DNA of 61,710 nt from Eubacteriales Family XIII. Incertae Sedis bacterium (lineage in GTDB: Bacteria; Bacillota; Clostridia; Peptostreptococcales; Anaerovoracaceae). Positions 20,652-45,482 of the stretch are shown here, in pieces. The stretch lies in the NCBI GenBank assembly GCA_031266795.1, contig JAISAI010000082.1, positions 1 through 61,710 of the forward strand, read 5' to 3'. The position numbers and the translations under genes were made by a program. Numbering within the stretch: position 1 is the stretch's first letter; every line of letters begins with the position of its first letter. The notes under the pieces are model-generated. The model worked only from the letters and a program-made list of their open reading frames with translations, was not told the DNA's origin and did not search any database.

Positions 20652-20834
20652 ATGTACAAGGAGATGTCGTTCATCTCATACTACTTCCACTGGGGGCGCG
20701 ACGAGGTCATGGCGCTCGACCATGCCGCCCGCAGGCGATGGTGCGAGGAAATCTCCGCCATCAACGCGGATCTCACTCCCTCCGAAGGCAAAGGCGGCAA
20801 AGAAGTGAGCATTACCGATATGCGCTTTAGCTAA
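20652..20834 (+). CDS. small conserved CIS-locus protein (YYFHW...RRRW motif); possibly made as a -1 frameshift extension of 20269-20631
   Basis: MSFISYYFHWGRDEVMALDHAARRRWCEEISAIN. Its frame is open from 20601, upstream of the ATG. Confidence 0.55.
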   Translation: MYKEMSFISYYFHWGRDEVMALDHAARRRWCEEISAINADLTPSEGKGGKEVSITDMRFS

Positions 20835-20867
20835 AGAGCAGTAACAGATAAAGGGAACGACGGTCAT

Positions 20868-21371: not shown

Positions 21372-21383
21372 GCTTGGAATGAT

Positions 21384-23741: not shown

Positions 23742-23751
23742 GGAATCAGCC

Positions 23752-24522: not shown

Positions 24523-24534
24523 AGGGAGACGAGG

Positions 24535-25290: not shown

Positions 25291-25333
25291 TAGGGAGCGT
25301 TAGGATGTCAGTAATGAAAGGGATTTTTGAAAA

Positions 25334-26512: not shown

Positions 26513-26524
26513 GAGAAGGATACT

Positions 26525-27337: not shown

Positions 27338-27350
27338 GAGAGGAGCAGGG

Positions 27351-27776
27351 ATGATGGCGAGAGCTGAGGATAACTCTTTTCTGGGCAGCGGCATGAAATT
27401 CCCGCCGCAAGCGAACAAGGCGACGGGCAGGTTTGCCGTGTCCTCCGGCGCGCAGAGCGTGAAGGAATCGGTCTACCTGATACTCATGACGTCGGTCGGG
27501 GAACGGCGCCTCTTGCCGGAGTTCGGGAGCAGCCTCGCGCGCTACGCCTTTATGGATATGACGCTCACGAACCTGAGCATGCTGCGCAACGATGTCATGG
27601 ATATCATCCTGTCGCAGGAATCGAGGATATCCGATGTCGAGGTCGCGGCCGACGCGGAGAGCAGGGACGACTGCGTCGTCATCAGCATCGCCTACAGGAT
27701 CGCCGAGACAAACGCCGTAGACAATCTCGTGTTCCCGTTTTATCTGAAGTCCACTTCTGAGGAGGCTGACGTATGA
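27351..27776 (+). CDS. baseplate wedge protein, GPW/gp25 family (Afp9/Cis9)
   Basis: FLGSGMKFP...SVKESVYLILMTSVGERRLLPEFGSSLARYAF. Confidence 0.85.
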   Translation: MMARAEDNSFLGSGMKFPPQANKATGRFAVSSGAQSVKESVYLILMTSVGERRLLPEFGSSLARYAFMDMTLTNLSMLRNDVMDIILSQESRISDVEVAADAESRDDCVVISIAYRIAETNAVDNLVFPFYLKSTSEEADV

Positions 27777-30700
27777 GCGGACGGGATGGGTACAAATTGG
27801 AGAGATACCTCATTGACCCGAGGCGCGCGGACGACCTGCTGGCCGAGATCGCGGCGCGGGCCGCTTCCTATACGCCGGAGTGGGTTTTTGACCCGAAAAA
27901 TCCGGACATCGGCTCCGTGCTCACTATCCTGTTCGCCGGGCAGATGTCGGGCAGCATCGACCGCCTGAACCAATTGGTGAACAAGTACCGCATGGAATTC
28001 GTCAACATGCTGAATGTCGGGCTGCTGCCGGCTTCCCCCGCTACGGGCGTCTGCGTGTTCGATCTCGTGCAGAATGTCGTGCCGGGCGTGGATATGCCGA
28101 GCGGGGTCAGGCTTCTTGGCTATGATGAGGAGGCGACGTCCGCCGTCGTGTTTGAGACCCTGTCGCATCTGCATGTGACGAACGCGTCCGTCTCCGATGT
28201 CGCCATGTCCTCATCCCATTTCGGAAAGATCATCCCCCTGCGCGGGACGGCTACGGCGGCGCGGCCCGCGTGGATACCGGCGCCGGCCTCCGGGGAGGAC
28301 AGCGAACAAGCGAACGACGCCATACGCCTGTTTGATTTCAGCGAAGAGGGCGTCGGGCAAAACGCGCTGCTCCTGTATCATGAAAACGCGTTTGACGTAC
28401 CGCCGCGCTCAAACGTGTTCGTCGAGGTTTTCGCGCCCGACGGCAAGCCGCTCGCAGATACCCTCGCTGATTCGTCGGCTTATCGCTGGAGCTATTTTGA
28501 CGGCGCGGGATTCACGCCGTTCACGGAGGCGGTGGATGTGGATGGCGTCCTCTCCCTGCGCAGGGACGGCGCGATGGAGAAGACGCCTATCCGCGGTGAC
28601 GTGGCATGCGACGTCGTGCGCGTCGACGCGGTCGGCCCGGTGAACGGCAGCCTCGATCTGGGGAACATCCTCATCCATTCGAGCGCCGTGGATACGCCTC
28701 CCGACTTCGCGAACAACAACGAAGCCGATCTACCTGTGGGCGAGTTCATGCCTTTCGGGAATACGGCGTCCCTCTTTGACGACTGCTATATCGGCAGCGA
28801 CAGCGTCTTTTCACACGATGGCGCTGAGATAACGCTCCGCTTTTCCCTGAGTTACCGGGACAAGCTCGTGACATTCACGCCGGAGCAAGAGGCGGCGGAC
28901 CTTAAGATCATCAAGCCGAAACCGAGGCAGATCGTCTTTACGACCGCACACACGCGCGCGGACAGGGTATCGGCTGAGTATTTCAACGGCACGGGGTGGT
29001 GCAGGCTGACGGGGGATGAGCAGTGGGCCACGATATTTGACGGCAGCGTGTCGGGGCCGGTGGAGCTGACGTTTACCTGCCCTCAGGGATGGGAGCCGAT
29101 CAGCATCGGCGCGAACACGGGCCGCTGCGTCAGGCTCCGCATTGAGAGCGCCGACAACTGTTACCTCCAGCCCTGCGTGCACCATATGCCGCTCGTTCAC
29201 GGGTTTTCGATTTCCTATGAGTATACGGAGAGCAAGAAGCAGCCCACCTATATGGAAAGGCTCAGCGGCGTTGAAACCGTCGACCTCACGCGCGCGATCG
29301 CCGGCGGCGTCCCCTTCACCGCTTTTGAGGCCTTCCCCTCCGTGGGCAACAATCTGTATATCGGCTTGGATAGCAAGCCCGGCGGCCGGCCGCTCAGCCT
29401 GTACTTCGCGTTGCAGGGCTCCGCGCGGCGCGCGGGCGTGCCCCTGCGTTTCGAATACTCGACGGGCAGGGGATTCACTCACATGCGCGTGGAGGATGGG
29501 ACGGACGGTTTTTCCAAGAGCGGCGTCGTCACATTCAACCCGGGCGACGACTTCACTTTTTTGGAACAGATGGGGCTGTCGCGCTGCTGGATACGAATCG
29601 TGGACGCGGAGGGCTTCTTTGACGAGGCGGGCAGATACCATCCCATAATCACGGACATCATTCCGAACGCCGTGGCGATCCACAATGTCCAGACGCTTGA
29701 TGAGGACGTCTTTTACGTGGACGAGGCCGCGCCGAATATGTCGTTCAGGCTGTCGTCCGACAATATCCTGTCAGCGGACGTCTATGTCAACGAGCGCAAC
29801 CTCCCGAAGCCCGTCATAGAAAAGATGATCGCGGAGGAACCGGAACGCGTGCGCGTGGAGTACGACGAGCGCGGGGAGGTGAGCGGATTTCATGTCCTTT
29901 GGAACGAAGTCGACAATTTTGACGGCTCGGCGCCGGGCGACAGGCATTACGTGATAGACCGTCTTCACAACACTATACGGTTTGGGGACGGTATCGGCGT
30001 ACGCATACCCGCCGCCTCCTCCGAGCCGGCATTCACCGTCCGCGTCAGGCGCTGCGACGGCGCGACGGGCAATCTTCCGGCCGGCTCCCTGACGGATCTG
30101 ATGGATCGGGTGCTCTACGTCGGCGACGTATTCAACCCCCTCGCGACGAGCGGCGGCAGCGACATGGAGAGCGTAGCGCTTGCCATGGAGCGCGTTTCGG
30201 GCGTCGTCAACTCCGGCGGCCGCTTGGTGAGCGAAAGGGACTACGAGCGCGAGACGCTGAACTTTTCCGAAATGATCGGGAGCGCGCGCTGCATCGTAGA
30301 GAGCCCGCTCACGCACGGGGAGTTTTCGCTGAACATCGCGCTGCTCATGCGCGACTACTTGGACGGCTCCTATTCGTTTGAAAACGTGCGCGACGGCCTT
30401 GTGGATAGAATCCGGCGGAAGTGCGAAGCGACGTTGACCGCCGACTGCATCCGGGTGACGGAGCCGACCTTTGTCCGCATAGATGTCGACGTATGGGTTT
30501 TCGAGCCGAACAAGAAGGCTCGATACGACACGGCGGCGTTGATCCGCGAGCGCGTCGCGGAGCGTCTCGATCCCTTGCCCCGCGAGGATGCGCGGGGTAC
30601 GATGTACGGGGGATGGCGTATCGGGGAAATGCCCGCGCCCGAGCAGATCGAGATCATGCTGTACGGCATATCCGGGGACGCGGTGATAAAGCGGTTTACG

Positions 30701-30817
30701 GCCACGGCGAATTACATCGACAAGAACGGTGAAAGGCGTTCGTGCGAGCTCAGCCGCCTGAAGCGCGAGCCGTTCATGGTAGGTGTGAACGGAAAACACA
30801 AGGTGCATTTCCTGTGA
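27773..30817 (+). CDS. large baseplate wedge protein, Baseplate_J/gp6-like (Afp11/Cis11)
   Basis: 1014 aa. SGGSDMESVALAMERVSGVVNSGGRLVSERDYERETLNFSEMIGSARCI is the Baseplate_J signature. ATGA overlap with the gp25 gene. Confidence 0.8.
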   Translation: MSGRDGYKLERYLIDPRRADDLLAEIAARAASYTPEWVFDPKNPDIGSVLTILFAGQMSGSIDRLNQLVNKYRMEFVNMLNVGLLPASPATGVCVFDLVQNVVPGVDMPSGVRLLGYDEEATSAVVFETLSHLHVTNASVSDVAMSSSHFGKIIPLRGTATAARPAWIPAPASGEDSEQANDAIRLFDFSEEGVGQNALLLYHENAFDVPPRSNVFVEVFAPDGKPLADTLADSSAYRWSYFDGAGFTPFTEAVDVDGVLSLRRDGAMEKTPIRGDVACDVVRVDAVGPVNGSLDLGNILIHSSAVDTPPDFANNNEADLPVGEFMPFGNTASLFDDCYIGSDSVFSHDGAEITLRFSLSYRDKLVTFTPEQEAADLKIIKPKPRQIVFTTAHTRADRVSAEYFNGTGWCRLTGDEQWATIFDGSVSGPVELTFTCPQGWEPISIGANTGRCVRLRIESADNCYLQPCVHHMPLVHGFSISYEYTESKKQPTYMERLSGVETVDLTRAIAGGVPFTAFEAFPSVGNNLYIGLDSKPGGRPLSLYFALQGSARRAGVPLRFEYSTGRGFTHMRVEDGTDGFSKSGVVTFNPGDDFTFLEQMGLSRCWIRIVDAEGFFDEAGRYHPIITDIIPNAVAIHNVQTLDEDVFYVDEAAPNMSFRLSSDNILSADVYVNERNLPKPVIEKMIAEEPERVRVEYDERGEVSGFHVLWNEVDNFDGSAPGDRHYVIDRLHNTIRFGDGIGVRIPAASSEPAFTVRVRRCDGATGNLPAGSLTDLMDRVLYVGDVFNPLATSGGSDMESVALAMERVSGVVNSGGRLVSERDYERETLNFSEMIGSARCIVESPLTHGEFSLNIALLMRDYLDGSYSFENVRDGLVDRIRRKCEATLTADCIRVTEPTFVRIDVDVWVFEPNKKARYDTAALIRERVAERLDPLPREDARGTMYGGWRIGEMPAPEQIEIMLYGISGDAVIKRFTATANYIDKNGERRSCELSRLKREPFMVGVNGKHKVHFL

Positions 30818-30851
30818 AAATTATTATCTTATATAATAGTAACGGAAGGGG

Positions 30852-32945
30852 TTGGCATTGCTTGATACTATAAATCTTTCAGACAAGACCTATGAGGAGA
30901 TTCTCGGCGAATCCATCGAGAAGATCCCTATGCTTACGGACGAGTGGACGAATTTCAACTATTCGGATCCCGGCATTACTATGCTGCAAAACCTCTCGGC
31001 CTTCACCGTCTTGCAGCGCGATACCATCAACACGGTGACGGACGCCGTGCGTCTGAAACTTCTCGCGATGCTCGGGTTTGAGTCGAATGAATACAGGGCG
31101 GCCGGGGTCTACCTGAGCGCGAACGGCGGCCTGTCGCTCATGGAGGGCGAGAAGCTCATGGCGGAGGACATCTGCTTCGAACCGGCGGGGCCGGTCGAAC
31201 TCAGCGATTGGGGGGTGAACGGGCTCTACTGCGAATATGGCGGCGAGGTTCGGGATATTACCTACGTCCAAGCGGGGGCTTCCGGGACGAGCGCGGCGGT
31301 GTTCGGGACGCCCGCGCGGTCAGGCGCTGCATTCTATGTGCTATTAGGCGACGTGCCCGATGAGAGGGAAAGCCTCACGCTCGCGGTGCGCATCATGAAC
31401 GACGAGGCGCGAAATCCGCTCGGCGACTCAAACCTGTCGCTCGCTACGCTGCGCTGGCAGTTTTTCACGCGGAGGGGATGGGAGGACGCCTATGCCGACG
31501 ACGGCACGCGCGGATTTCTCAAGAGCGGCTTCGTGCACCTCTCCGTCAAGGGCGCCGACAAAGCGCGGTATACCGTGAACGGCAACGACGGCTACGCCCT
31601 GCGCTGCATCCTGACGGACGAGGCTTACGACCTGCCGCCGAGGCTGCACTCCGTTACGGCAAACCTGTTCAAGGCCGTCCAAAAGGACAGCAAGGTGTCG
31701 ACGATGCCCTATCCCGGGAGACGTACGGTGGTTCTGAAAAACCGCCTGTGGATCAACGGCTACTATACGGTGTACTGCGATGAGGAGAACGACGGGGTAT
31801 ACCGCCGCTACGAGCCGTCCACGGGGAAGGACAAGCAGGGCCGTTACTATACGACGAAGCTAATCCCCGATGGCGTACAGATACGCTTTAGCCCCAAGCG
31901 TTTCGGCTACAGCCCTTGTACGAAGAAAAACGCCGTGCGCGTCGTGTGCTGCGACGCTATGAGCGCGGAGCACTTGACGCTTGGCAGGCTCATGGGGTAT
32001 GAGGGGCAGACGTTCGAGACGAAAGGCTTTTCGCAAATCCTGCCGGAGGGCTTTTGCCTGCTTGCCGAGCGGCAGCCGGTGAACGGCGCGTCCGAATTCT
32101 CATTCGTGTATCCGGACAGCACGGACAGCGGCATGTTCCGCTATGAGGCGCCTTCGAGCACGGGGCATATCCGGGTCAAGGACCCCGGCGGTATGGAGGG
32201 CTGCGTCATACATCTCGCCGGCTGCGCCGTGACGGAGGGCGCGCGCGGAAACATCCGGGCCGGGAACGTGTTCACGCCCACGCTCATGCCAAGGGAGGAA
32301 AAGCAAGCCGCGCCGCAGATCGTCAACGCGCTGGCCGCTTCAGGCGGGAGTACGCGCGAGGACGCCGAGCGGCTTCGGCTGCGCTTTCTCGCGGATCTGC
32401 GTACGCCCTCCGTGGCCGTCACCTTGGACGATTACGAGTACATCGTGCGGACTACGCCGGGCTTGTGCATCCACAAGGTGAGGGCCGTGGCGGATTCCGA
32501 AAAAAATCTCGTGCGCATCGCCGTGAAGCCTTACGGGGAGGACAAGCTGCCGACCTTGTCGCCGCTCTACGCAGAATACATCGGCAGGCATATAGACAAG
32601 CGGCGCATGATCGGTACAAGCATCGAGCTGGCGCCGCCCGTCTATATTCCCATCAACATCCACGCGGTGGTCTACTCCGCCGGCTACTATGAAGACGTCC
32701 GGGGAACGATCGAGGCCTTCCTTCGCGGGAAGCTCGACGGCGTGAACGGGGATATGCGTTTTGGGGCCACCATCTCGTACAACAGCCTGCACAGGAGAAT
32801 AGAGGCGCTCGACGCCGTGAAGTCGCTGTACGACTTCGACATAGCGCCGGCCGATTGGAGACACGCCCATCTCGAAGGCCCGGACATCATACTCGGGGAC
32901 GACGAGCTGTGCTGCCCGGGGCATTTTGAAATTGAAATAAGATAG
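30852..32945 (+). CDS. second baseplate wedge protein with a Baseplate_J-like module (Afp12/Cis12 position)
   Basis: TTG start after GGAAGGGG. N-terminus: YEEILGESIEKIPMLTDEWTNFNYSDPGITMLQNLS. Further in: ASGGSTREDAERLRLRFLADLRTPSVAVTLDDYEYIVRTTPGL. Confidence 0.75.
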   Translation: MALLDTINLSDKTYEEILGESIEKIPMLTDEWTNFNYSDPGITMLQNLSAFTVLQRDTINTVTDAVRLKLLAMLGFESNEYRAAGVYLSANGGLSLMEGEKLMAEDICFEPAGPVELSDWGVNGLYCEYGGEVRDITYVQAGASGTSAAVFGTPARSGAAFYVLLGDVPDERESLTLAVRIMNDEARNPLGDSNLSLATLRWQFFTRRGWEDAYADDGTRGFLKSGFVHLSVKGADKARYTVNGNDGYALRCILTDEAYDLPPRLHSVTANLFKAVQKDSKVSTMPYPGRRTVVLKNRLWINGYYTVYCDEENDGVYRRYEPSTGKDKQGRYYTTKLIPDGVQIRFSPKRFGYSPCTKKNAVRVVCCDAMSAEHLTLGRLMGYEGQTFETKGFSQILPEGFCLLAERQPVNGASEFSFVYPDSTDSGMFRYEAPSSTGHIRVKDPGGMEGCVIHLAGCAVTEGARGNIRAGNVFTPTLMPREEKQAAPQIVNALAASGGSTREDAERLRLRFLADLRTPSVAVTLDDYEYIVRTTPGLCIHKVRAVADSEKNLVRIAVKPYGEDKLPTLSPLYAEYIGRHIDKRRMIGTSIELAPPVYIPINIHAVVYSAGYYEDVRGTIEAFLRGKLDGVNGDMRFGATISYNSLHRRIEALDAVKSLYDFDIAPADWRHAHLEGPDIILGDDELCCPGHFEIEIR

Positions 32946-32978
32946 ACGCTACCCGCGAGTGATGGAAAGGAACGGTAT

Positions 32979-34088
32979 ATGGCTTCGGCAATCAAGAAAT
33001 ATCTCATAGGCGCCGCCCGTATGGAGCGGGCCTGTAAGGATGGCTTCGAGCTGACGCGGGACGAAGCGCTCGTCTCGGCGGGCCGGGACAGGAAAGCCGA
33101 AATATTCTTCGGCAAGATCGACGGCGTCCTCGAGGGCTGCCCGTGGGGCCGCTTTGCCTTTGACGTGGACGCCGAGGAAGATACGGTGTTCACCGTGCGC
33201 GTGATGGCTTCGGACGACCCGCAGCTCATACGGAACGGCGAGGCCGTGGACAGGGACGACGTCATGCTCGATCCGTCCGTGAGCGCGCGTGAGAAGCTGG
33301 CCGAGTTCAAGGCGTCGTCGTGGCGCGCGGAGGACGCGTCCGTTTACCGCGATATACTGCTGTACGGCCACTATGGCCGCTACCTGTGGATATACCTGAG
33401 CGCGCAGGGCGGCAAGGCGACGTTCTCCCACTTCAGGGCCTACGCGCCCGGCGACAATTTTCTTGGGACATTCCCCGAGGTATACCGCGAAGAGGGCTCG
33501 TTCTTTCACCGCTACCTGTCGATTTTCTCTTCTCTGTATAACGATCTGCAGGAGAAGATCGACTCCGTGGACGCCCTGCTCGATCCCGATACGGCGCCGG
33601 CGCCCTTGCTTCCGGTCTACGCCTCATGGTTCGGCATATCGTTAGACGGGGATTTGGTCGATGAGGCCCGATTGCGCGCGCTTCTGAAAAAGGTCCCGTC
33701 GCTCATCCGGAAAAAGGGTACGCGCGAGTCCATAGAGGAGCTCGTGGGCGTCTTCGTCGACGCGCCATTCTATATCGTGGAGCGCCAGACCGCGCTCAAG
33801 CACGCAAACGCGGAGAACCGCCGCATATTGGAACGACTGTACGGAGACGACCCGTTCAGCTTTACCTTGCTCATCGATCAGCTCCCGGATGAAAAGCTCC
33901 AACTGCGCCTCACGCGTCTCATAGAGCAGTTCAAGCCCATACGGATGAACATGCGCATCCTGTTCATGAGGGATAGCTCGACGCTTGACGGCGGCGCCAA
34001 TTTGGATTTGAACGCCGTCCTCGCTGATCCGTCGGAAGGCATGTTGGACAATGGCGCGGCGCTGAACGGTACGGAGTATTTGACATGA
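32979..34088 (+). CDS. phage tail protein I (P2 gpI-like) baseplate periphery protein
   Basis: FHRYLSIFSSLYNDLQEKIDSVDALLDPDTAPAPLLPVYASWFGISLDG...LLKKVPSLIRKKGTRESIEELVGVF. Confidence 0.75.
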   Translation: MASAIKKYLIGAARMERACKDGFELTRDEALVSAGRDRKAEIFFGKIDGVLEGCPWGRFAFDVDAEEDTVFTVRVMASDDPQLIRNGEAVDRDDVMLDPSVSAREKLAEFKASSWRAEDASVYRDILLYGHYGRYLWIYLSAQGGKATFSHFRAYAPGDNFLGTFPEVYREEGSFFHRYLSIFSSLYNDLQEKIDSVDALLDPDTAPAPLLPVYASWFGISLDGDLVDEARLRALLKKVPSLIRKKGTRESIEELVGVFVDAPFYIVERQTALKHANAENRRILERLYGDDPFSFTLLIDQLPDEKLQLRLTRLIEQFKPIRMNMRILFMRDSSTLDGGANLDLNAVLADPSEGMLDNGAALNGTEYLT

Positions 34089-34176
34089 GCGCGCCGGAAA
34101 GATCAGGTATTGTTTGCGGAGCGGGGCGACGCGGGGTGGCGCGGGGCGGCGCGAATGAAGAATCGAGGGAATGGAC

Positions 34177-34467
34177 ATGGCTGACGCCAATACCGGATTG
34201 AAGAACGGCAGGGGCCCCTCCGGCGCGGATCGCGACGACGACTTCGAGATCGAGATACGTATCGAGAAACCGGTCATCGATCCGATAGACCGGGCCGGCA
34301 ACATGTTCGACCGGGAGGCGCGGCGATATTCCGGCGGCATCAATACGGCGCAGTCCGTATTTTCCGGCCAAACGCTGTTCAACGCCACGCCTGAGAACGC
34401 AGGCTTGGATACGCGAAAAAAACAAGCAACGCCAAAGGAGCCTTATGGGACACATTCTGATAGTTGA
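34177..34467 (+). CDS. possible small disordered acidic/basic protein in the only sizeable gap of the CIS operon
   Basis: GAGGGA lies 6 nt upstream of ATG 34177. The predicted 96-aa product is low in complexity, and the ORF overlaps the response-regulator start by 23 nt. It could be non-coding. Confidence 0.3.
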   Translation: MADANTGLKNGRGPSGADRDDDFEIEIRIEKPVIDPIDRAGNMFDREARRYSGGINTAQSVFSGQTLFNATPENAGLDTRKKQATPKEPYGTHSDS

Positions 34468-35182
34468 AGACGACAAGGATCTGTCGGACATCACGACTAT
34501 CCATCTGACGGGCGCGGGCCATACGGTGCGCCAGGCCTTTCTGTGCGGGGAGGCTCTGGCTTTTATCGATACGGACTACTTCGATTGCGTGCTGCTCGAC
34601 ATCATGATACCGGACGGGACGGGTCAGGAGGTCTGCGACTATCTGCGCGACAGAAGCGCCTGCCCCATCATATTCGTGAGCTGCCTCGAGGACAGCGCAA
34701 CCATCGTTTCGTCGCTGGGCCGGGGTGGCGACGACTACGTGACGAAGCCCGTAAACTATGAGGAACTGATCGCCCGCGTCGAAGCCAACATACGCAGGTA
34801 CCGCGAGTCGCCCGGCAGCCACAGACGCGCCGAAAAGATTCGCCGCTTCGAGAGCTTTACGATAGACACGCTGCACAGGCGCGTGGTTTCCGGGGAACAC
34901 GAGCTCGATCTGACGCAGATCGAGTATGCGCTGTTGGAATATCTGTCAGCGCACGCGGACGACCTGATCCTGTACGACGATCTGTATAAAAACGTGTGGC
35001 AAAGCGACAGCCTCGGCAACTACAGCGCGCTGTTTGTACACGTTTCAAATTTGAAGAAGAAAATCGATCCCGACCACCTCGGTGTGATCGAAAACGTCCG
35101 GGGCGTCGGCTACCTGTTCACGGACGTGCGGAAAGAAGATACGGGGAAGATGCGGATATATGAGAGGAGAGGCAGGGTATGA
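34445..35182 (+). CDS. OmpR/PhoB-family response regulator (receiver plus winged-helix)
   Basis: ILIVEDDKD, DCVLLDIMIPDGTG (phospho-Asp), DDYVTKP. DNA-binding end: LTQIEYALLEYL...VHVSNLKKKID...IENVRGVGYLF. AAAGGAG RBS. Confidence 0.9.
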   Translation: MGHILIVEDDKDLSDITTIHLTGAGHTVRQAFLCGEALAFIDTDYFDCVLLDIMIPDGTGQEVCDYLRDRSACPIIFVSCLEDSATIVSSLGRGGDDYVTKPVNYEELIARVEANIRRYRESPGSHRRAEKIRRFESFTIDTLHRRVVSGEHELDLTQIEYALLEYLSAHADDLILYDDLYKNVWQSDSLGNYSALFVHVSNLKKKIDPDHLGVIENVRGVGYLFTDVRKEDTGKMRIYERRGRV

Positions 35183-37545
35183 GTTTTTTTTCGGAAGATT
35201 TCAAAGGGAAACCGTTTCCCGGCTATGAGGCGTATACGTCCGCGCTGTTCGCCTGTGTGGACAGGCAGCTGCATATGTATCTGAACGAGATGGGGGAGCT
35301 CTTTGCGTCGGAGCAGGGCGGGTTTAAGAATGTGCTCTATCCCGATATAGAGATCGCCCACGACCTGACGGAAAAGCACCTCATGGATTTTTCCGAAGAC
35401 GGCGCTCCGGGCGTTCCGGACAGCGAGGGCGCGAGTGGGGGAAATAATGAGGGCGGGCGCGCGGGTGCAGACGCGGAAGCGCATTCCGGCGCAGCGGAAG
35501 CTGAGGGCATAGACGACGAACTGGCGTCGCTGTTCGACGACTTTTCGAGCCAAGACGCGCCCGTGCAGCCGTCCGCTCCGTCCTTCGCCGTCGACACGTC
35601 CGAGCATATCGACACGCTCATGGACATGCTGCGCGAGCGGGCGGAAAAGACGGATCCGGGCAAGGTGGATATGCCGTTTTACCGGCTGTGCGGCGACAGG
35701 GGCTTTTCAAACTTCACGACATTCTGTTTCGCCTGCGCCGTCCTTTCGTCCACGCAGACGAACTACGCGTCCATATTTCAGGTCGTGAACCAGAACGGCA
35801 ACCTTTCGGCGCCGACGTTCGAGTCCGTGGCGCGCGTGTACTACGGGAAGGGGTTTTCCATCACGAGCGCCTCGTCCGCCATGTCGGAAGCGCTTGAACA
35901 GCTCCAGCATCTTTTCAGCCTGAACATCAACAGCGCCATGCCGTTCTCAACGCCGATTTCTCCGGACAAGCGCCTGATCGACTTTTTGTTCGGCCCGAAC
36001 CCGCGCCGCGTCGATGAAAACTATCGCCGTTTCCTTCGGCTCATCACGGACGATTCCGAGTTGGATCCGCTTATCGCGAACAAAGGCCAGCTCGATGCGA
36101 TCGGCATCTCTTCGGCGGACGGGACGCGCCTGTTCAATCTGTACGGCGACGAGGGCAGCGGGCGCAAATTCACGATACGGCATTTTTGCGCGGAACGCGA
36201 TATGGAATGCGTCAGTATCGACGGCGGCAAGTTGTTTGTCTACGACTTTTCGTTCGTTGAAAAAGCGCTTTGGGCAGTCAGCCGCGAGTGCATATTATTG
36301 AACGCCTGTTGCTGCTTAGACAATCTCTCGTACCGGGAGGAGGAGAAGGAGAAATTCTTCGGGTACATGGATCTCGCGTTCGGTAAGCTCATGGACAATG
36401 AGCACACGGTGTTTGCGTTGAGCCGCGAGAAGATGCCGTTCAAGGAAATGACGTCGGCCGAATACGCCCAGATCGAGCTGCCTACGCCGAACAACAGCGA
36501 GCGCGAGCAGCTGTGGCAGCACTACGCTCAGGGCTTCTCGTTTGACGACGACGTGGATCTGATCGAAATGGCCGCGAAGTTCCTGTTTACGGCGGGCAAG
36601 ATCAAGGGCGCGCTCCATATGAGCAAGGGCCTCGCGGCGATGGCGAAGACGGAGAAGATCGGGCGCGGCAGCCTGTTTGAGGCGTGCTACAATCAGATGA
36701 GCCACGAGCTGACGCAAAAGGCGACAAAGATCAAAGCGACGTACACGTGGGACGATATTGTCATGTCGCCCGACCAGCGTCAGGCGCTCGAATACGCCTG
36801 CGACCAGATGCGCTTCCGCAAACAGGTCTATGAGCAGTGGGACTACAATCGCAAATACCCGTATGGCCGCGGCTTGTCCGTCCTGCTGTTTGGCGCTCCC
36901 GGCACCGGGAAATCCATGTGCGCGCAGGTGCTCGCCAACGCGCTCAATCTCGAGCTCTACCGCGTTGACCTGTCGAAGGTGGTGGACAAATACGTTGGCG
37001 AGACGGAAAAGAGCATCTCCATGATCTTCCGCGAGGCGAAGAAGTGCAACGTCGTACTGTTTTTCGACGAGTGCGATACGCTCTTCGCCAAGCGCGCTGA
37101 CGACGGCGGAAGCAATCAATCGAGTAATAATAACAAGACAGCATTGTTATTACAGGAAGTAGAGGCCTATGACGGGGTGTCCGTGCTCGCCACAAACTAC
37201 AAACACAACATCGACCCCGCGTTTTTCAGGCGCATGAAGTTCATCGTGGAGTTCCAATTCCCCGATCCGGAGACCCGCTACATCCTCTGGAATACGACGA
37301 TCCCAAAAGGGACGCCTTTGGCGGAGGACGTCGACATCCGCTTCCTCGCGGACAAATTTGAGTTCGTAGGCGGCAACATCAAGAACTGCATTTTGAACGC
37401 GGCCTTCCTCGCGGCCGGCGACCCGGAGGCGAACGGAGAGGTGCATATGAGGCATTACCTCCTCGCGATCCGCTATGAATTTGTGAAAACGGGCAAGGTC
37501 TTTACGCGATCCGATTTCGAACCTTACGCTGATCAGGTGCTGTAA
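35179..37545 (+). CDS. CIS AAA+ ATPase (Afp15/Cis15-like)
   Basis: Walker A: LLFGAPGTGKSMCAQ. Walker B: VVLFFDECDTLF. A ~500-aa N-terminal region precedes the single AAA module. ATGA overlap with the response-regulator stop. Confidence 0.88.
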   Translation: MSFFSEDFKGKPFPGYEAYTSALFACVDRQLHMYLNEMGELFASEQGGFKNVLYPDIEIAHDLTEKHLMDFSEDGAPGVPDSEGASGGNNEGGRAGADAEAHSGAAEAEGIDDELASLFDDFSSQDAPVQPSAPSFAVDTSEHIDTLMDMLRERAEKTDPGKVDMPFYRLCGDRGFSNFTTFCFACAVLSSTQTNYASIFQVVNQNGNLSAPTFESVARVYYGKGFSITSASSAMSEALEQLQHLFSLNINSAMPFSTPISPDKRLIDFLFGPNPRRVDENYRRFLRLITDDSELDPLIANKGQLDAIGISSADGTRLFNLYGDEGSGRKFTIRHFCAERDMECVSIDGGKLFVYDFSFVEKALWAVSRECILLNACCCLDNLSYREEEKEKFFGYMDLAFGKLMDNEHTVFALSREKMPFKEMTSAEYAQIELPTPNNSEREQLWQHYAQGFSFDDDVDLIEMAAKFLFTAGKIKGALHMSKGLAAMAKTEKIGRGSLFEACYNQMSHELTQKATKIKATYTWDDIVMSPDQRQALEYACDQMRFRKQVYEQWDYNRKYPYGRGLSVLLFGAPGTGKSMCAQVLANALNLELYRVDLSKVVDKYVGETEKSISMIFREAKKCNVVLFFDECDTLFAKRADDGGSNQSSNNNKTALLLQEVEAYDGVSVLATNYKHNIDPAFFRRMKFIVEFQFPDPETRYILWNTTIPKGTPLAEDVDIRFLADKFEFVGGNIKNCILNAAFLAAGDPEANGEVHMRHYLLAIRYEFVKTGKVFTRSDFEPYADQVL

Positions 37546-37549
37546 CGAT

Positions 37550-38260
37550 ATGAGAAACGAAGACGATTCACTTAAAAAATATGTCAACGACCTGACGCAC
37601 AGCCTCCGTATGCCGCTGTCGATCATCATCGGCTACGCGGAGCTCTTGAAGCAGGGCCGCGTACCGGACGAGGCGACGCGCAGGCAGTACATCGGAAAGA
37701 TCTACGACCGGGCCACGTACATGAATGAGATACTCAGCAATTTCGTGTCCGAGACGGAGTTTGACCTCGGCGCGGATAACGTCGTCCGCGTGGCAGTCGA
37801 CGTCGTGGGGCTCATACGCGGCATCGCCGAAGACATGAAGCCGGTCGCGGAGGCGGAGGGCGTGCGGATCCGGGTCGAGAGCGAAGAGAAGAAGATCGAA
37901 GTCGAGTTGGACACCGTCCAATGGATGAAGATGTTCTACAATCTCGTGGACAACACGCTGAAATACAAGGGACGCAAGACGGACATCTGGATCACGGTGT
38001 CTACGGACGGGAACGGCTGGCTGCTCGTCGTCTTTCGCGACGAGGGCATAGGCCTCCCGGAAGCGGAGATAGCACACATCTTCGAACCTGATTACCGGGG
38101 CAGCAACAGCAGCGATGGGCACGGCTTCGGGCTGCATCACGCGAAGCATGTAGTGGAATCGCACGGCGGGGAGATTTCCGCAAAGGGCGGCGTCGGCAGG
38201 GGTCTCGGCGTCTACATACGCGTACCCGTCTCATCGCCCCGGGCGGAAAGGAGGCCGTAG
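37550..38260 (+). CDS. sensor-less cytoplasmic histidine kinase (DHp plus HATPase_c only, 236 aa)
   Basis: H-box: LTHSLRMPLSIIIGYAELL. N-box: VDNTLKY. G1: FRDEGIGL. G2: GHGFGLHHAK. No TM or sensor domain is possible because the ORF starts 4 nt after the ATPase stop. Confidence 0.85.
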   Translation: MRNEDDSLKKYVNDLTHSLRMPLSIIIGYAELLKQGRVPDEATRRQYIGKIYDRATYMNEILSNFVSETEFDLGADNVVRVAVDVVGLIRGIAEDMKPVAEAEGVRIRVESEEKKIEVELDTVQWMKMFYNLVDNTLKYKGRKTDIWITVSTDGNGWLLVVFRDEGIGLPEAEIAHIFEPDYRGSNSSDGHGFGLHHAKHVVESHGGEISAKGGVGRGLGVYIRVPVSSPRAERRP

Positions 38261-38647
38261 ATGGCGGTCTGCGCATGTACGGGAGCGAGCATGTTCTGCT
38301 CATTCGGCCTCGCGCCGTCCACCCTCAACGTGACGTCAAACCTAAAGGTGCTGACGTCCAAGCCCGCGGCGACCATCATGGACTTTCGGCCGATGGTCAA
38401 CATCCCGCCGTTTGGCATGTGTACGTCGCTCGCAAACCCGATGGTGGCGTCCGCGACGGCGGCGGCCCTCGGCGTGCTGACGCCCATGCCCTGCATCCCC
38501 AACACCATGGCCCCGTGGATCCCGGGCAGCCCCATGGTGATCATAGGGAATTATCCCGCCCTGTCAAGCACCTCGCAGCTGATCTGCGCCTATGGCGGCA
38601 TGATAAAAATCATCTCCCCCGGACAGATGAAGGTGCTTGTGCCGTAG
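38261..38647 (+). CDS. DUF4280 (PAAR-like) spike-tip protein
   Basis: CTGASMFCSFGLAPSTLNV...IMDFRPMVNIPPFGMCTSLANP...PCIPNT..PWIPGSPMVIIGNYPAL...LICAYGGMIKIISPGQ. The ATG directly abuts the kinase stop codon. Confidence 0.8.
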   Translation: MAVCACTGASMFCSFGLAPSTLNVTSNLKVLTSKPAATIMDFRPMVNIPPFGMCTSLANPMVASATAAALGVLTPMPCIPNTMAPWIPGSPMVIIGNYPALSSTSQLICAYGGMIKIISPGQMKVLVP

Positions 38648-38668: not shown

Positions 38669-39301
38669 TTAACTGCTATGAAACCTCGTCCTCGCGTTGA
38701 TCGCGCGGACAAAAAATGTGACGCATATCATCGTCGCGGCGGCGATTGCCAAGACGGGTTTCGATGCGTTGTCGCCGCCTGACAGCGAAAACAGATACCA
38801 CACGCTGTCCTGCGGCACGCTCATCATGTTCATGAAAAAGTAGACGACGGAAACAAAATATCCGGCGATCGTATTGTCAAATATTCCGGCGATAAGGAAG
38901 CCGAGCGCACCGATGAAAAACGCGGTGGCGAAAGCGCCGAAGAGGTATTCGCAGACGGGGAAAACGCACCCGCGCGCGGACATGACACATACCAAGACGG
39001 CAATGATGAGCAGACAGATCAGCGAAGATAAAACCAATCGTATCACTATGGTTTTGCGGAACGAAAACGCCTTTGCCGCGATTACTTCCCGGACGCGCCT
39101 GTCCTGCTCGGGAGCGCACACGGACGTTATGAGGATAATGCCGGTCAATGAAACAAAGCGCTCCAAAAGAATGGCCGAAGCGTACCAATCGAGATGTCCC
39201 GTCCCTGCGAACAGTGAAACCGCCGCCGCAAACGCCGTCGCGACAAAGGCGGTTTTATAAAGAACGATCCTGAACTGGATTGCGATCAATCCTAAACACA
39301 T
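38669..39301 (-). CDS. ABC-2-type transporter permease-like membrane protein
   Basis: Six predicted hydrophobic helices. It is co-oriented and overlaps the upstream permease and ATPase genes. The start is uncertain (47-nt overlap if ATG 39301). Confidence 0.55.
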   Translation of the reverse strand: MCLGLIAIQFRIVLYKTAFVATAFAAAVSLFAGTGHLDWYASAILLERFVSLTGIILITSVCAPEQDRRVREVIAAKAFSFRKTIVIRLVLSSLICLLIIAVLVCVMSARGCVFPVCEYLFGAFATAFFIGALGFLIAGIFDNTIAGYFVSVVYFFMNMMSVPQDSVWYLFSLSGGDNASKPVLAIAAATMICVTFFVRAINARTRFHSS

Positions 39302-40637
39302 ATCTGATTTTCCCGATAACATCGATTCGGCCTTTTCTCTTTTGGCTGTACAGATAGGCGGATAGCAGCAGCAACGCGACGGCGAGAACAGAGTACATGA
39401 CGCGATTTACCGCCAAATCCCCCATGGATCCAGCTAAGGCCCCCCTCCCGCCGATGGTGTTGAACCTGACGATCAGCCCTGTTCCGAAAGGTCCGCCGAG
39501 CGCGTCCAAAGGCGTCACGATCAGGGTGATATAGCTCCAAACGAACTGGACGATGATAGCCGCCGGCGTGTCGGTCAGTATGGTAATGGCAAATCCGACG
39601 CTTGTAACGGTGAGGAGCGTCGGCAAAAGCCACGCCGCCTCGTATTTCAGAAAAGCGAGCGGGTCGACCGGCAACCCGTGCCCCCGGGCGAAAACGATCA
39701 ATTCTATCGTTGGGATGATAGATATAATAATAATGGGCAGTAATGTCATGACGACACAAGCGAGATACTTTGCCACAATGAGTTTGAGCGATGAAACGCG
39801 CCTCGGCATGATCAGTTCGTCGCCGCGCGCCCGCCTGTCACGCGTCATATAGTTCACGACGACAAAGATCGCGAAAAGCGCGATCACTATACCCATGTAA
39901 TCACAGAAATATCGGGCGTACGCGTTCGTTATCTTATCCTCATAGACGATGCTCCGGTATTCGGCGAGCCTATCTTCGTAGCCTGCCGGCCTTGAGGCAA
40001 ACAGCATGAGGTTTTTCTCGGCGTAGGGCGAGCCGCCGCCGATCAACTGATCCACCCGCCGCATGTATCGTTCAAACTCCTCATAGCTGATCTTTATCGG
40101 TATTTTTGAGCCGTAGTCCTCGTCCGAATTGGTCGCAAAGGGTATCGGCGTATCCAAGCCTTTGATCGACTCGCCAATTTCCGCGGGGGAAAGCCCCGTC
40201 ATATCGACGAGTATCCCGGCTATCTCATTTTGATCGTCACTCGGCGGCGTCGTGTGTTTCAGGAATCCCAGCGTGGAATAGTGGGTATACCTTCCCGCGC
40301 CCGCAGAATACATATACTCGGTCGCGAGCATGGCGCAGGCGTTCGGCATTGTCAGCTCGGGGATGACGACATTCTCTCTGCCGTAACTTTCCGGATCGCC
40401 CTGAGACGGAGAAATCAAAGGATTGGTTTCGGGGGCATAATTATAGCTGAATACGGTAAAACCGTCTTTGGCAGGAAAGCTGAACTCAATCTCCTCGCCG
40501 GTATCAACTTGTCTGATCTGATTATATAAATCAAACCCAAAATTCATGAAATAAAACACGACCACGATGACGACGAAAAGAAACCACGGGATGGTTTTGC
40601 GCACCGCCCTGCATTCCTTGAGGAACAGCCCCATCAT
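39255..40637 (-). CDS. ABC transporter permease with a large extracytoplasmic loop
   Basis: N-terminal TM, a ~230-aa loop, then 5 C-terminal TM helices. ATGA-type overlap with the ATPase gene. Confidence 0.6.
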   Translation of the reverse strand: MMGLFLKECRAVRKTIPWFLFVVIVVVFYFMNFGFDLYNQIRQVDTGEEIEFSFPAKDGFTVFSYNYAPETNPLISPSQGDPESYGRENVVIPELTMPNACAMLATEYMYSAGAGRYTHYSTLGFLKHTTPPSDDQNEIAGILVDMTGLSPAEIGESIKGLDTPIPFATNSDEDYGSKIPIKISYEEFERYMRRVDQLIGGGSPYAEKNLMLFASRPAGYEDRLAEYRSIVYEDKITNAYARYFCDYMGIVIALFAIFVVVNYMTRDRRARGDELIMPRRVSSLKLIVAKYLACVVMTLLPIIIISIIPTIELIVFARGHGLPVDPLAFLKYEAAWLLPTLLTVTSVGFAITILTDTPAAIIVQFVWSYITLIVTPLDALGGPFGTGLIVRFNTIGGRGALAGSMGDLAVNRVMYSVLAVALLLLSAYLYSQKRKGRIDVIGKIRYVFRIDRNPVQDRSL

Positions 40638-41347
40638 CCCTCACCGATAAGTTGCAGATAGGCTTCCTCGAGCGTGGCGCCGCCCTTTGTGAGACCTGTG
40701 ACGACCCCGTCGAAAACCACGGCGCCCTTGTCGAGAATGGCGAGATGGTCGCAGAGCTTTTCGACGTCCTCGACAATATGGGTGGAGAGAATGACGATGC
40801 GGTTTTCGGCCATATCGCCGAGCATGGCGCGAAAGCGTACGCGCTCGACAGGGTCGAGTCCGGAGGTAGGCTCGTCGACAATCAATACGGCGGGGTTGTG
40901 AATGATGGCCTGCGCCATGCCGAAGCGGCGCTTCATACCGCCGGACAACGCGCGAATGCGTTTCCTCCTCTCGTCGAACAAATTGACGCGGTTCAGTAGC
41001 TCGGGAATTCGCTCTTTTCTGACGTCCCGGCTCACGCCGGAGAGCAGGCCCAAATAGTCCAGCGCTTCATCGACGAACATATTGGGATAAAAAGAAAACT
41101 CCTGCGGCAAATACCCGATCAACGGGCGAAGCGTTTTTGTCTCGGAAATATCCGCCCCGCAGACCGTCGCCATGCCGCCGGTTTTGGGCAACAAGGTAGC
41201 GAGTATCCGCAGCAAGGTCGTTTTCCCCGCCCCGTTCCGGCCAAGCAAACCGAACACGCCCGGCCCGATCTTCAGCGAAACATCGTCGAGGGCAAGGAAT
41301 TTGCCATACCGCTTGGACAATCCGTCAGTAATTATTTCAATGTTCAT
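40634..41347 (-). CDS. ABC transporter ATP-binding protein
   Basis: Walker A: GLLGRNGAGKTT. Signature: LSGGMKRRFGMA. Walker B: LIVDEPTSGLD. Start set at MNIEIITDGL rather than the ORF-track start. Confidence 0.9.
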   Translation of the reverse strand: MNIEIITDGLSKRYGKFLALDDVSLKIGPGVFGLLGRNGAGKTTLLRILATLLPKTGGMATVCGADISETKTLRPLIGYLPQEFSFYPNMFVDEALDYLGLLSGVSRDVRKERIPELLNRVNLFDERRKRIRALSGGMKRRFGMAQAIIHNPAVLIVDEPTSGLDPVERVRFRAMLGDMAENRIVILSTHIVEDVEKLCDHLAILDKGAVVFDGVVTGLTKGGATLEEAYLQLIGEG

Positions 41348-41523
41348 TTTGAGATGATTTTCAGTATATCCACCACTTAATGTATCAACCCTTACACCGC
41401 GCCGGATTCCGTAAGGAGTCATGGGGCTGAGTTCTTGTTAACTTTTCTTTGGTTAGCACCATCAGTATACCATAGGCAAGGGGGATAATCCGAATCCGCC
41501 TTGCCTATCCGTTCAATCCTCTA

Positions 41524-44092: not shown

Positions 44093-44224
44093 GGTAGAGG
44101 GCGCTGTTGGCCTCCTTGAAGCAGCGACTTCGTACGAAAGGGTAGCGCCTCTGCCTTGCGGGTGAATGCGAATGAGCTGGATAGCGCGAGACGTTCAATA
44201 TCTAACAAGGTTGTATTCCGCAAG
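44093..44224 (+). ncRNA. putative IS110 bridge (seek) RNA: two adjacent internal-loop stem-loops
   Basis: Stem 1: 44093-44105 pairs with 44144-44155 (12 bp, one bulged G, one GU). Stem 2: 44155/56-44161 (CTTGCGG) pairs with 44218-44224 (CCGCAAG). There is no ORF here, and it lies 47 nt upstream of the transposase ATG. Confidence 0.45.
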
Positions 44225-44270
44225 CAGCAGAGGGTTTGGCTCTACCGTGTTAAGGAAAGAGGTGGTATCC

Positions 44271-45482
44271 ATGTATTACTGCGGAATCGACATTGCCAAA
44301 CGCAAACACGAGGTATCGGTCATTGACGAAGCCGGACATCTTCTGTCCAAGAGTTTCCCGATCGACAACTCTGCTGATGGTGCAGCTGTGCTGTTCGGGT
44401 TTTTCTCTGAGAACGGGATGGATAAATCCGATGTGCTGATTGGGATGGAGGCGACCGGCCACTACTGGCTGTCGCTTTATTCCTATCTTACGGAATCGGG
44501 TTGTGACGTCAAGGTCATCAACCCAATCACGTCTGACGCTTTCAGAAAGATGTATATCCGGCAGACAAAGAATGACTCTAAGGACTCTTTCGTCATTGCC
44601 CAGATCATGCGTTTCGGTGAATTCAACACCACCGAACTTTCCGAAGAAAACGTTATTGCTCTCAGGCAGCTCTCGCGATATCGCCTTTGCCTTGTCGAAA
44701 GCGTGGGGGATTGCAAGCGCCGCATCATCGCGCTTCTTGACCAAGTGTTCCCGGAGTATGCAAGCCTTTTCTCGGACACGTTCGGCGTGACATCGCTCGA
44801 GATCCTCACGAAATACCAGTCGCCCGAGGACTTGGCCAAGGTTCCGACGAAACGCCTTGCGGCATTTCTCTCCAAGGCGAGCAAAGGCCGCTTCAAGGAC
44901 GAGAAAGCCCGTGAGCTCAAAGCCGTTGCCAAAGGGTCTTTTGGCGTCGCCTTCGCCAAGGATGCGTTCGCATTCCAGATCAAGCAACTGGTAGACCAAC
45001 TCGTGTTCTTGGAAGGTCAGATTGCGGATTTGGAGAGCGAGGTCAATGTACTGATGAAGTCGATAGGCTCACCAATCACGACGATTACGGGTATTGGCCC
45101 CGTTCTTGGCGCCGCCATTCTCGGAGAGATCGGTGACATTAAGCGTTTCGACCATCCGTCGAAGCTCGTGGCGTTCGCGGGGCTTGACGTCAAGGTCGTG
45201 CAATCCGGCGAGTTCACAGGTACGCAGGGCAAGATGTCTAAGCGGGGTTCTCCCTATCTGCGGCGCGCTATCTGGCTCGCTGCCAATGTCGCGGCTTTTA
45301 GTGACCCGACAATGTCGGAATATTACCAGTCGCTCAGAAAACGAGGTAAACACCATCTCGTCGCCGTCAGCGGCGTCGCCCGGAAGATGTGCAACGTCAT
45401 CTTTGTCATCCTTTCGGAAAACAAGGTCTATGATCCGCACCACCCGCGCCCAGAGAACCATCCTGGTTCCACACGAACGTAG
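44271..45482 (+). CDS. IS110 family transposase/recombinase
   Basis: AAGGAAAGAGGTGG RBS. N-terminus: MYYCGIDIAKRKHEV. C-terminus: ITGIGPVLGAAILGEIGDIKRFDHPSKLVAFAGLDVKVVQSGEF.G..GKMSKRGSPYLRRAIWLAA. Confidence 0.92.
   Translation: MYYCGIDIAKRKHEVSVIDEAGHLLSKSFPIDNSADGAAVLFGFFSENGMDKSDVLIGMEATGHYWLSLYSYLTESGCDVKVINPITSDAFRKMYIRQTKNDSKDSFVIAQIMRFGEFNTTELSEENVIALRQLSRYRLCLVESVGDCKRRIIALLDQVFPEYASLFSDTFGVTSLEILTKYQSPEDLAKVPTKRLAAFLSKASKGRFKDEKARELKAVAKGSFGVAFAKDAFAFQIKQLVDQLVFLEGQIADLESEVNVLMKSIGSPITTITGIGPVLGAAILGEIGDIKRFDHPSKLVAFAGLDVKVVQSGEFTGTQGKMSKRGSPYLRRAIWLAANVAAFSDPTMSEYYQSLRKRGKHHLVAVSGVARKMCNVIFVILSENKVYDPHHPRPENHPGSTRT

Follow-up and report, generated by a model that had tools for sequence, protein, structure and literature searches.

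A 61.7-kb stretch of DNA from a Eubacteriales Family XIII Incertae Sedis bacterium (contig JAISAI010000082.1; hereafter the window) carries on its + strand a complete gene cluster for a phage-tail-like contractile injection system (CIS), in which the gene of an Afp15-type AAA+ ATPase is bracketed by the genes of an OmpR/PhoB-family response regulator (RR) and a soluble, sensor-less histidine kinase (HK). We consider it somewhat probable that these two proteins constitute a two-component system dedicated to the CIS, which was inherited together with the Afp15-type ATPase and acts at a candidate operator at positions 5215-5236. The pair is most likely the cluster's own on/off regulator, and it would represent a locus-encoded two-component CIS regulator rather than a new class of system.

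According to this proposal, the HK would phosphorylate the OmpR/PhoB-type RR on Asp52, and the phosphorylated RR would bind the tandem 11-bp repeats at 5215-5236, which would stand in for the -35 hexamer of an extended -10 promoter. Such binding would activate the membrane-module gene at 5319 in an arrangement similar to that of PhoB class II promoters, and read-through would probably carry the activation to the rest of the cluster, the RR, ATPase, HK and tip genes included. All genes between 5319 and 38647 (about 25 downstream) are co-directional and separated by short gaps, while a consensus scan identified no + strand promoter between 33800 and 38647, and terminator-like hairpins before the RR gene occurred only at chance level; the HK and RR genes are therefore probably located at the tail of the transcript that they would activate. 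The system would thus amplify its own synthesis, resulting in positive feedback and all-or-none expression, and, because the HK lacks a sensor, its input would be a protein partner or its own abundance alone.

Architecture of the regulator, ATPase, kinase and tip genes

The cluster ends with five genes on the + strand, encoding a small conserved protein of 98 aa (34171-34467), the RR (34445-35182; 245 aa, with D52 as the phospho-acceptor and a winged helix), the ATPase (35179-37545; 788 aa), the HisKA-type HK (37550-38260; 236 aa, with His17 in its H-box) and a DUF4280 PAAR-like spike-tip protein (38261-38647; 128 aa). A preliminary description of this DNA had given the order RR-ATPase-HK-DUF4280 together with the coordinates and junctions of these genes, all of which proved correct. 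The TGA stop codon of the RR gene overlaps the ATG of the ATPase gene (ATGA at 35179-35182), the TAA stop codon of the ATPase gene (37543-37545) is separated from the HK start codon (ATG at 37550) by the four nucleotides 'cgat', and the TAG of the HK gene (38258-38260) directly precedes the DUF4280 ATG at 38261. The small open reading frame (ORF) overlaps the RR start by 23 nt, and the region 34089-34444, previously regarded as intergenic, is mostly coding, corresponding to the conserved small protein at 34171-34467. Only a weak Shine-Dalgarno sequence precedes the HK start. Overlapping or near-abutting junctions (4-nt overlaps or gaps of ~10 nt) are the rule along the entire 33-kb gene array, so that the 'stoichiometric co-expression' of kinase, ATPase and tip had been deduced from junctions that are ordinary for this operon; as such junctions occur all along the cluster, they provide no argument for a stoichiometric complex.

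The RR is composed of a receiver domain (Pfam Response_reg, residues 4-113, E 2e-20) and a DNA-binding domain (Trans_reg_C, residues 152-225, E 1e-15). The receiver pocket residues D9, D10, D52, S79 and K101 are present as read from the sequence and conserved in the family alignment, in agreement with the earlier statement that the regulator retains its phospho-acceptor Asp (D52) and, as Pfam and the alignment indicate, its winged-helix output. Its full length is matched in the PDB by DrrD, RegX3, MtrA and KdpE, while no NCBIfam equivalog cut-off was reached, the scores being far below the PhoB and PhoR cut-offs. In the alignment, the CIS-linked RRs form one tightly conserved family, recognition helix included.

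The HK comprises only a HisKA domain (Pfam, residues 9-65, E 9e-10) and a HATPase_c domain (residues 123-227, E 8.5e-22), and hydropathy analysis of the window protein revealed no membrane helix or other hydrophobic segment; the description of the kinase as a 236-aa protein without a sensor is thus borne out. A longer form is impossible, since the ATPase gene occupies the upstream DNA. His17 is located 16 residues after the start of the protein in the H-box LTHSLRMPLS, which aligns with the H-boxes of HK853 and of all CIS-linked kinases, while the N, G1, F and G2 boxes (NLVDNTLKY, DEGIGL, IFEPDYRG and GHGFGL, read from the sequence and conserved in the alignment) are intact. An end-to-end alignment covers residues 9-228 of the HK and the cytoplasmic core of HK853, which consists of the dimerisation and histidine phosphotransfer (DHp) and catalytic (CA) domains (chain 21-248; E 4e-23 for 2c2a and 3dge), the best entry being 4jas (1.9e-24). 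By NCBIfam score, the catalytic core is of the HisKA, PhoR/WalK/VanS-like type. The nearest relatives of the window HK are the CIS-linked kinases (92-175 bits), the best other database kinases listed scoring about 103 bits or less, with their genomic context left unchecked. The H-box is atypical throughout the family (H-[S/E/T/Q/N/G]-L-R-[M/I/V]-P); because full-length members share it, this is a family trait and not a sign of decay, and for the same reason, i.e. that the motif is atypical across the family, activity of the HK cannot be presumed.

The ATPase carries a Pfam AAA domain at residues 568-693, while its residues 321-773 align with Afp15 of the Serratia plasmid pADAP (29.9% identity, E 1e-46, tblastn), the homology reaching about 250 residues N-terminal of the AAA module. 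Its assignment to the Afp15 type is in keeping with its position in a cluster, on the same strand, of sheath, tube, baseplate and spike genes (Pvc16_N, sheath, gp19-like tube, two CIS_tube, Phage_base_V spike, gp25, two Baseplate_J and Tail_P2_I, at 16352-34088). The Clostridia contain hundreds of ATPase homologues at 60-79% identity, and no kinase or receiver domain is fused to the ATPase among the 120 best homologues listed. Many related loci (L009, L011, L018, L028, L034, L036-L038 and L051-L084, at various positions) carry, besides the first ATPase, a paralogous AAA+ ATPase of ~700 aa that scores 210-310 bits against that of the window; the window holds one ATPase only. The tip protein matches DUF4280 over residues 6-122 (E 1e-33, 116.6 bits) and the NCBIfam IglG-like model at 54.7 bits, below its cut-off of 200; no solved structure matching it by sequence was found. 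The 98-aa protein has no Pfam or NCBIfam match, yet its homologues (phmmer, 24-54 bits) adjoin the ATPase gene, either 5' or 3', in about 30 related loci, and this linkage suggests a hitherto unrecognised partner of the Afp15-type ATPase.

Conservation and derivation of the pair in Clostridial loci

The comparison covered 80 species-level Clostridial genome loci with a homologous ATPase (named L001 etc.), many of them contigs of metagenome-assembled genomes (MAGs), which were taken with 10-kb flanks and annotated by phmmer using the window proteins; genes were called as longest ORFs and membrane helices by a simple hydropathy window. An orthologous OmpR-type RR gene is located directly 5' of the ATPase gene in 34 of the 80 loci, with the ATGA overlap in seven of the 34 and gaps of roughly 10-50 nt in most others; among the more distant relatives, this adjacency is found in Oscillospiraceae, Gracilibacteraceae and some Lachnospiraceae MAGs. 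The HK gene is divergently transcribed just 5' of the RR gene in 28 loci, and further permutations occur (ATPase-HK-RR and RR-ATPase-STAS-HK), with the pair beside the ATPase gene in all of them. In about half of the 80 loci, HK and RR genes lie no more than 10 kb away from the ATPase gene. Gene linkage over about 40 loci supports the view that the two proteins are phosphotransfer partners, a pairing which we infer from these arrangements.

Four close relatives of the window HK (54-81% identity) were found among the homologues returned by the protein search, all on short metagenome contigs (L001-L004) that keep ATPase-HK and/or HK-DUF4280. The full order of small ORF, RR, ATPase, short HK and DUF4280 is present in two termite-gut 'Family XIII' MAGs (L006 and L007). 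The window-type order is consequently kept in six independent contigs (L001-L004 as fragments, L006 and L007 complete) at HK identities of 51-81% and synonymous divergence (dS) >1, and the HK reading frame is maintained in all six save for one split gene (L004). The ratio of non-synonymous to synonymous substitution (dN/dS) is 0.12-0.25 for HK and RR, similar to that of the ATPase, although these values are rough, with dS near saturation. No compositional (guanine-cytosine, GC) break was seen at the four genes from RR to DUF4280. The preliminary description had named the absence of the two-component system from all homologous loci, as expected of a recent accidental insertion, as the finding that would speak against it; this is contradicted by the 34 of 80 loci with an RR gene 5' of the ATPase gene and by the six contigs with the window order. 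As far as such comparisons can tell, the two-component system is clearly an old, selected companion of this ATPase and no accidental insertion. A recent horizontal insertion of the HK/RR pair was ruled out, given the lack of a GC break and the spread of orthologues through the ATPase family.

Three equally close siblings (L005, L008 and L010; ATPase 74-76% identical) carry the small ORF, ATPase, DUF4280 and STAS genes without RR or HK, DUF4280 lying directly 3' of the ATPase gene. In loci without the pair, tblastn detected no decayed RR or HK remnants within the sequenced parts examined. Among the Lachnospiraceae relatives, L050-L084 (e.g. L051, 1238-9954) contain no response regulator, and between their STAS and ATPase genes lie those of an ABC-type ATPase, a dCache-HAMP-SpoIIE (PP2C) phosphatase, an RsbW-like HATPase_c_2 kinase, a two-helix kinase-like protein and an SH3 protein; by its domain content, this is a partner-switching set replacing the two-component system.

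The orthologous kinases of the related loci are mostly 313-345 aa in length and possess two N-terminal hydrophobic helices ~10 residues apart, followed by a coiled-coil linker of ~35 residues and the H-box, i.e. most of them have the two-helix architecture of intramembrane-sensing kinases that the window HK lacks. In the kinases of L009 and L011, two termite-gut Oscillospiraceae that contain the nearest ATPase relatives outside Family XIII, the helices are lost while the linker and the divergent gene position are kept; in the window clade the linker is lost as well and the gene has moved behind the ATPase gene. The kinases of L065 and L080 are likewise without predicted helices. On the evidence of these alignments, the window HK is a derived, truncated and relocated form of a CIS-linked two-helix kinase family. 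The ancestral layout, which persists in most relatives, would thus have consisted of an HK anchored by two helices with a minimal loop between them and transcribed divergently from RR-ATPase, and in the termite-gut Family XIII-like clade the HK would have shed both anchor and coiled-coil linker and moved between the ATPase and tip genes. The lack of a sensor is thus no design principle of the system; it is one outcome among several, here a clade-specific truncation within a family with two membrane helices.

Candidate operator and flanking features

The candidate RR operator (5215-5236, + strand) is formed by two 11-bp direct repeats, CTTTAGTAAAT and ATTTAACGTAC, at the -35 position, with half-sites TTTAG at 5216-5220 and TTTAA at 5227-5231. 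It lies within 5193-5294, a region that the preliminary description had put forward as a target of the RR and in which a putative operator can thus be recognised. An extended -10 element (5251-5262, + strand), in which TGA-TATTAT (5251-5259) overlaps TATAAT (5257-5262), is located 17 nt after the repeats and lacks a -35 hexamer; a consensus scan detected no complete sigma-70-type promoter on the + strand in this region. The first gene after the operator (5319-7334, + strand) encodes a membrane-module protein and heads the co-directional array that extends to 38647. Within the 61.7-kb window, the pattern TTTAR-N6-TTTAR has a single match (5216-5231), with 0.10 expected.

In the relatives, the corresponding element 5' of the first membrane-module gene, TTTTAGAAAAT-CTTTAGAAAAA, similarly consists of two direct repeats with an 11-bp period, followed after 17 nt by an extended -10 (TGnTAtaAT) and without a -35 hexamer. 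The window site occupies the orthologous place and has the same geometry and 17-nt spacing as the sites in 16 other RR-carrying loci. Across 1.45 Mb of sequence from related loci, the strict pattern TTTAR-N6-TTTAR has 41 matches, mostly 5' of the first membrane-module gene, with a few of the sites preceding the small-ORF-ATPase unit (L021), the RR gene (L023 and L028), the HK gene (L030) or a second AAA gene (L038 and L043, the latter being a near-identical second ATPase copy, 1066 bits; the repeat in L038 is of the TTTAG type). Where the upstream region is visible, the element is present in 17 of 18 RR-carrying loci and in none of three RR-less loci (L049, L085 and L086, the last two being the contigs of siblings L005 and L010, respectively), giving a hypergeometric p of 4/1330 (~0.003), a value that ignores relatedness and concerns a pattern derived from the same loci.

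Other sites and regions were also considered. The region 34089-34444, likewise put forward earlier as an RR target, is mostly coding and contains no operator-like site. The motif TTGCAAT, noticed by eye in several HK/RR intergenic regions, was dropped as a window operator (three matches as compared with 5.6 expected, none at the locus), and direct autoregulation of the divergent RR-ATPase promoter as a family trait is unsupported, as there is mostly no site in the 260 nt 5' of the RR gene. A metagenome scan with TTTTAG-NN-AATCTTTAGAAA yielded CIS loci in two of the 120 matches listed (L128 and L184), the matches being mostly AT-rich chance occurrences (median GC 0.32). Of two further Family XIII-type upstream regions, that of L211 has a repeat-like element of the same geometry and that of L210 is without it; as the ATPase ends of both contigs are out of reach, the two lie outside the co-occurrence count. 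The genes that follow an orphan repeat in L039 have no informative domains. In L086 (~5735-5770), the contig of the pair-less sibling L010, an imperfect palindrome, CAGATAATTCGCAAT...ATTGCTGAATTATCTG, occurs where the window has the TTTAG repeats, which suggests a different regulator there. In L023, a ~25-nt element, AGTAAAGTTTTAGGGNTTACAGGGTACT, precedes the membrane-module gene as well as that of the regulator (~5342-5500 and ~6650-6700), and the recognition helix of the regulator of this locus differs (RTLAVH), which may reflect co-variation of regulator and operator.

The CIS cluster of the window is opened by a STAS gene (4848-5192, + strand), which is preceded by a near-consensus promoter (TTGACA-17-TATACT, 4788-4816). 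A STAS protein is encoded in most related loci whose flanks reach that far, its position varying between the cluster head, as in the window, and the tail (L005 and L007); in most related loci the gene follows that of DUF4280 or Tail_P2_I. A six-gene membrane module (about 5319-16334, + strand) follows, including a HAMP protein, a MORN protein and a TolC-like coiled-coil protein. Its first product (5319-7334) has a CIS13-like N-terminus (NCBIfam CIS13_fam, 77.5 bits, below cut-off) and a membrane helix at residues 477-495. It is ~70 residues longer than its homologues, which start at TTG, and its frame runs ~220 nt into the following gene as defined by the longest ORF (7114-8004), which may be a start-codon question or a frameshift. 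The gene at 8012-10402 (+ strand) encodes a 796-aa membrane protein with an N-terminal helix, an outside domain of ~300 residues, a helix cluster and a HAMP domain, followed by ~310 cytoplasmic residues without a family match; it is conserved with the membrane module and is a possible signal input. Bacillota CIS have been reported to be kin to haloarchaeal CIS that resemble type VI secretion systems (T6SS) (PMC11566945), and this kinship together with the conserved membrane module hints, as far as gene content is a guide, at an envelope-anchored CIS.

Just upstream of the cluster lies the gene of a 504-aa protein (2180-3694, - strand), in which a sigma-70 region 4 domain is confined to the N-terminal third and which may combine sigma and anti-sigma parts in one fusion. 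Downstream lie an IS110-family transposase gene (44166-45482, + strand) and the genes of two very large proteins (2830 and 1182 aa) of Listeria-Bacteroides (Flg_new) repeats (45750-57810, - strand), and the GC content drops to 0.45-0.52 between 41 and 46 kb.

Alternative roles, known systems and significance

Several observations weigh against a dedicated system acting at 5215-5236. The window H-box, H-S-L-R-M-P, lacks an acidic H+1 residue (S) and a Thr/Asn at H+4 (M), on which the autokinase and phosphatase reactions of canonical HisKA kinases rely, and the recognition helix of the window RR departs from the family consensus (SALFVHVSNLKKK vs RTVMVHISNLRKK). The window repeat is degenerate: while it attains the best weight-matrix score in the window, this score of 16.2 is only marginally above those of shuffled sequences (up to 15.3) and compares with 20-39 for the training sites. 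The next-ranked matrix matches (13-14 bits), in the AT-rich ~41.3-42.5 kb region beside an ABC transporter, are no better than shuffles. The count behind the co-occurrence of element and RR is small, in addition to its disregard of relatedness and the derivation of the pattern from the loci scored. Autoregulation in the window depends on an assumed read-through of 33 kb, and in divergent loci the weight-matrix search found the repeat to be mostly absent from the 260 nt 5' of the RR gene. Finally, the existence of close siblings without RR and HK implies that the pair is dispensable for building the injection machine.

The H-box substitutions bear in particular on a different account, which we regard as rather unlikely, namely that the HK is catalytically weak, a scaffold or a phosphatase-less remnant, with the RR being driven by cross-talk or acetyl phosphate or functioning free of phosphorylation. 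Such an account would accommodate the lack of the acidic H+1 and T/N H+4 residues, an N-terminus cut to 16 residues before the His, the poor Shine-Dalgarno sequence and the close siblings that are entirely without the system. However, the atypical H-box is common to the whole CIS-linked family, full-length helix-bearing members included, all four boxes of the catalytic domain (N, G1, F and G2) are preserved, and both the dN/dS of 0.12-0.25 and the retention of the HK frame in the six related contigs, the split gene of L004 excepted, weigh against it.

The preliminary description had suggested that the kinase reads a CIS-internal or cytoplasmic cue such as assembly state. In an assembly checkpoint of this kind, a partner within the CIS (the N-domain of the ATPase, the 34171 protein, the tip, STAS or the HAMP membrane protein) would hold or release the sensor-less HK and thereby relay the assembly or envelope state to transcription; we deem this distinctly unlikely. 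In accessory-regulated kinases a protein partner replaces the input domain, and for an HK without an input domain such a partner would be the usual alternative. Furthermore, the HK and RR genes adjoin the ATPase gene through every locus rearrangement, tighter than to any structural gene, and many relatives have the HK gene directly 5' of the membrane-module genes on the same strand. Conversely, the tight junctions are general in the operon, neither kinase nor receiver is fused to the ATPase among its 120 best homologues listed, and the membrane-anchored ancestral HK implies that a cytoplasmic assembly cue was not the original input of the family. If the checkpoint existed, the completion, firing or failure of the machine would be passed through RR phosphorylation to transcription of the whole cluster. 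Gene expression that responds in this way to the state of a structure has precedents in flagella and type III secretion; to our knowledge it is not known for contractile injection systems.

It is very improbable that the pair serves a neighbour, such as the ABC-2 transporter encoded immediately 3' on the opposite, convergent strand (38669-41422), and has come to lie beside the CIS genes by chance. Two membrane helices separated by a minimal loop are the typical kinase layout in transporter-coupled sensing, as in the peptide-sensing modules of Firmicutes, and in L027, L036, L039 and L041 an ABC ATPase gene is situated a few kb away from the HK gene; such linkage is nevertheless confined to a minority of loci, at variable distance, and is thus not the conserved ABC linkage of Bce-like systems. 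In addition, no ABC genes flank the window-type loci L006 and L007, the RR-ATPase adjacency is seen in 34 loci regardless of other neighbours, and the highest-scoring operator-like site of the window heads the CIS array and is not at the transporter. Least probable of those considered is an action of the RR on the ATPase protein, whereby phosphorylation-dependent binding would gate loading or assembly and explain the translational coupling of the two genes (RR directly 5' of the ATPase in 34/80 loci, with the 4-nt overlap in the window and seven relatives), since the RR has a complete winged-helix domain whose recognition helix is strongly conserved, loci with the RR also contain a tandem-repeat promoter element to match it, and RR-ATPase fusions are absent from the 120 best ATPase homologues listed.

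A dedicated regulatory pair acting on the CIS array has partial counterparts in known systems. PhoB, for which tandem 11-bp direct repeats in the pho box take over the role of the -35 hexamer, is the model of class II activation, and the pair described here resembles PhoR-PhoB in combining a HisKA kinase with a winged-helix RR and in its predicted operator of 11-bp-period repeats before a -35-less promoter with a good -10, while differing in the half-site, which is TTTAG and not CTGTCAT, and in the lack of an equivalog match. The intramembrane-sensing kinases of Firmicutes (LiaS/BceS-like) possess two membrane helices joined by a loop of under about 25 residues; the orthologous HKs of most related CIS loci are built alike, with a coiled-coil linker in addition, whereas the window HK has neither helices nor linker and no conserved partner transporter or LiaF-like gene was found. 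The whole 236-aa HK corresponds to the DHp and catalytic core of the HK853 construct (Thermotoga maritima, PDB 2c2a and 3dge), but natural HK853 also has a membrane sensor part, while here the core alone is the gene product, and its H-box reads H-E-L-R-T-P as opposed to H-S-L-R-M-P. As in Afp15/Pvc15 clusters, the ATPase is accompanied by sheath, tube, baseplate, spike and Pvc16-like genes; in pADAP, however, the Afp15 gene is situated between tape-measure and DUF4255 genes without signalling genes, and here the RR and HK genes enclose that of the ATPase.

Type VI secretion is a familiar target of two-component control. Among extracellular CIS (eCIS) loci, a GerE/LuxR protein is encoded beside 25.8%, and 9% of those have a kinase upstream, for which a two-component system was suggested (Geller et al. 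2021, PMC8213781). These GerE/LuxR-type regulators are comparable in that a kinase and regulator pair beside an injection-system cluster is proposed to control it, but here the RR is of the OmpR/PhoB type, the RR gene and that of the Afp15-type ATPase are joined within the operon rather than lying next to it, the HK is soluble and minimal, and the lineage is that of gut Clostridia. Searches for an OmpR-type or ATPase-linked two-component system in CIS retrieved only the GerE/kinase observation and T6SS papers. The earlier view that the arrangement had not been described thus stands for this particular arrangement in the literature searched, but not for kinase and regulator pairs beside eCIS in general, which had already been noted for the GerE/LuxR type (PMC8213781). 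The differences from these systems lie in the OmpR/PhoB type, the joining of RR and ATPase genes over a large Clostridial lineage, the minimal soluble HK and the predicted operator.

The CIS of gut and termite-gut Clostridia are widespread and, in the literature searched, uncharacterised, the timing of their production included. The predicted operator offers a concrete handle that defines a regulon, and a phosphomimetic or over-expressed RR could switch the cluster on in a native or heterologous host. Furthermore, the comparison shows repeated rewiring of the input within one CIS lineage, with a two-helix kinase, a soluble kinase, no two-component system at all or, in Lachnospiraceae, STAS/RsbW-like/PP2C partner switching, and these rewired inputs constitute a natural experiment on the control of such weapons.

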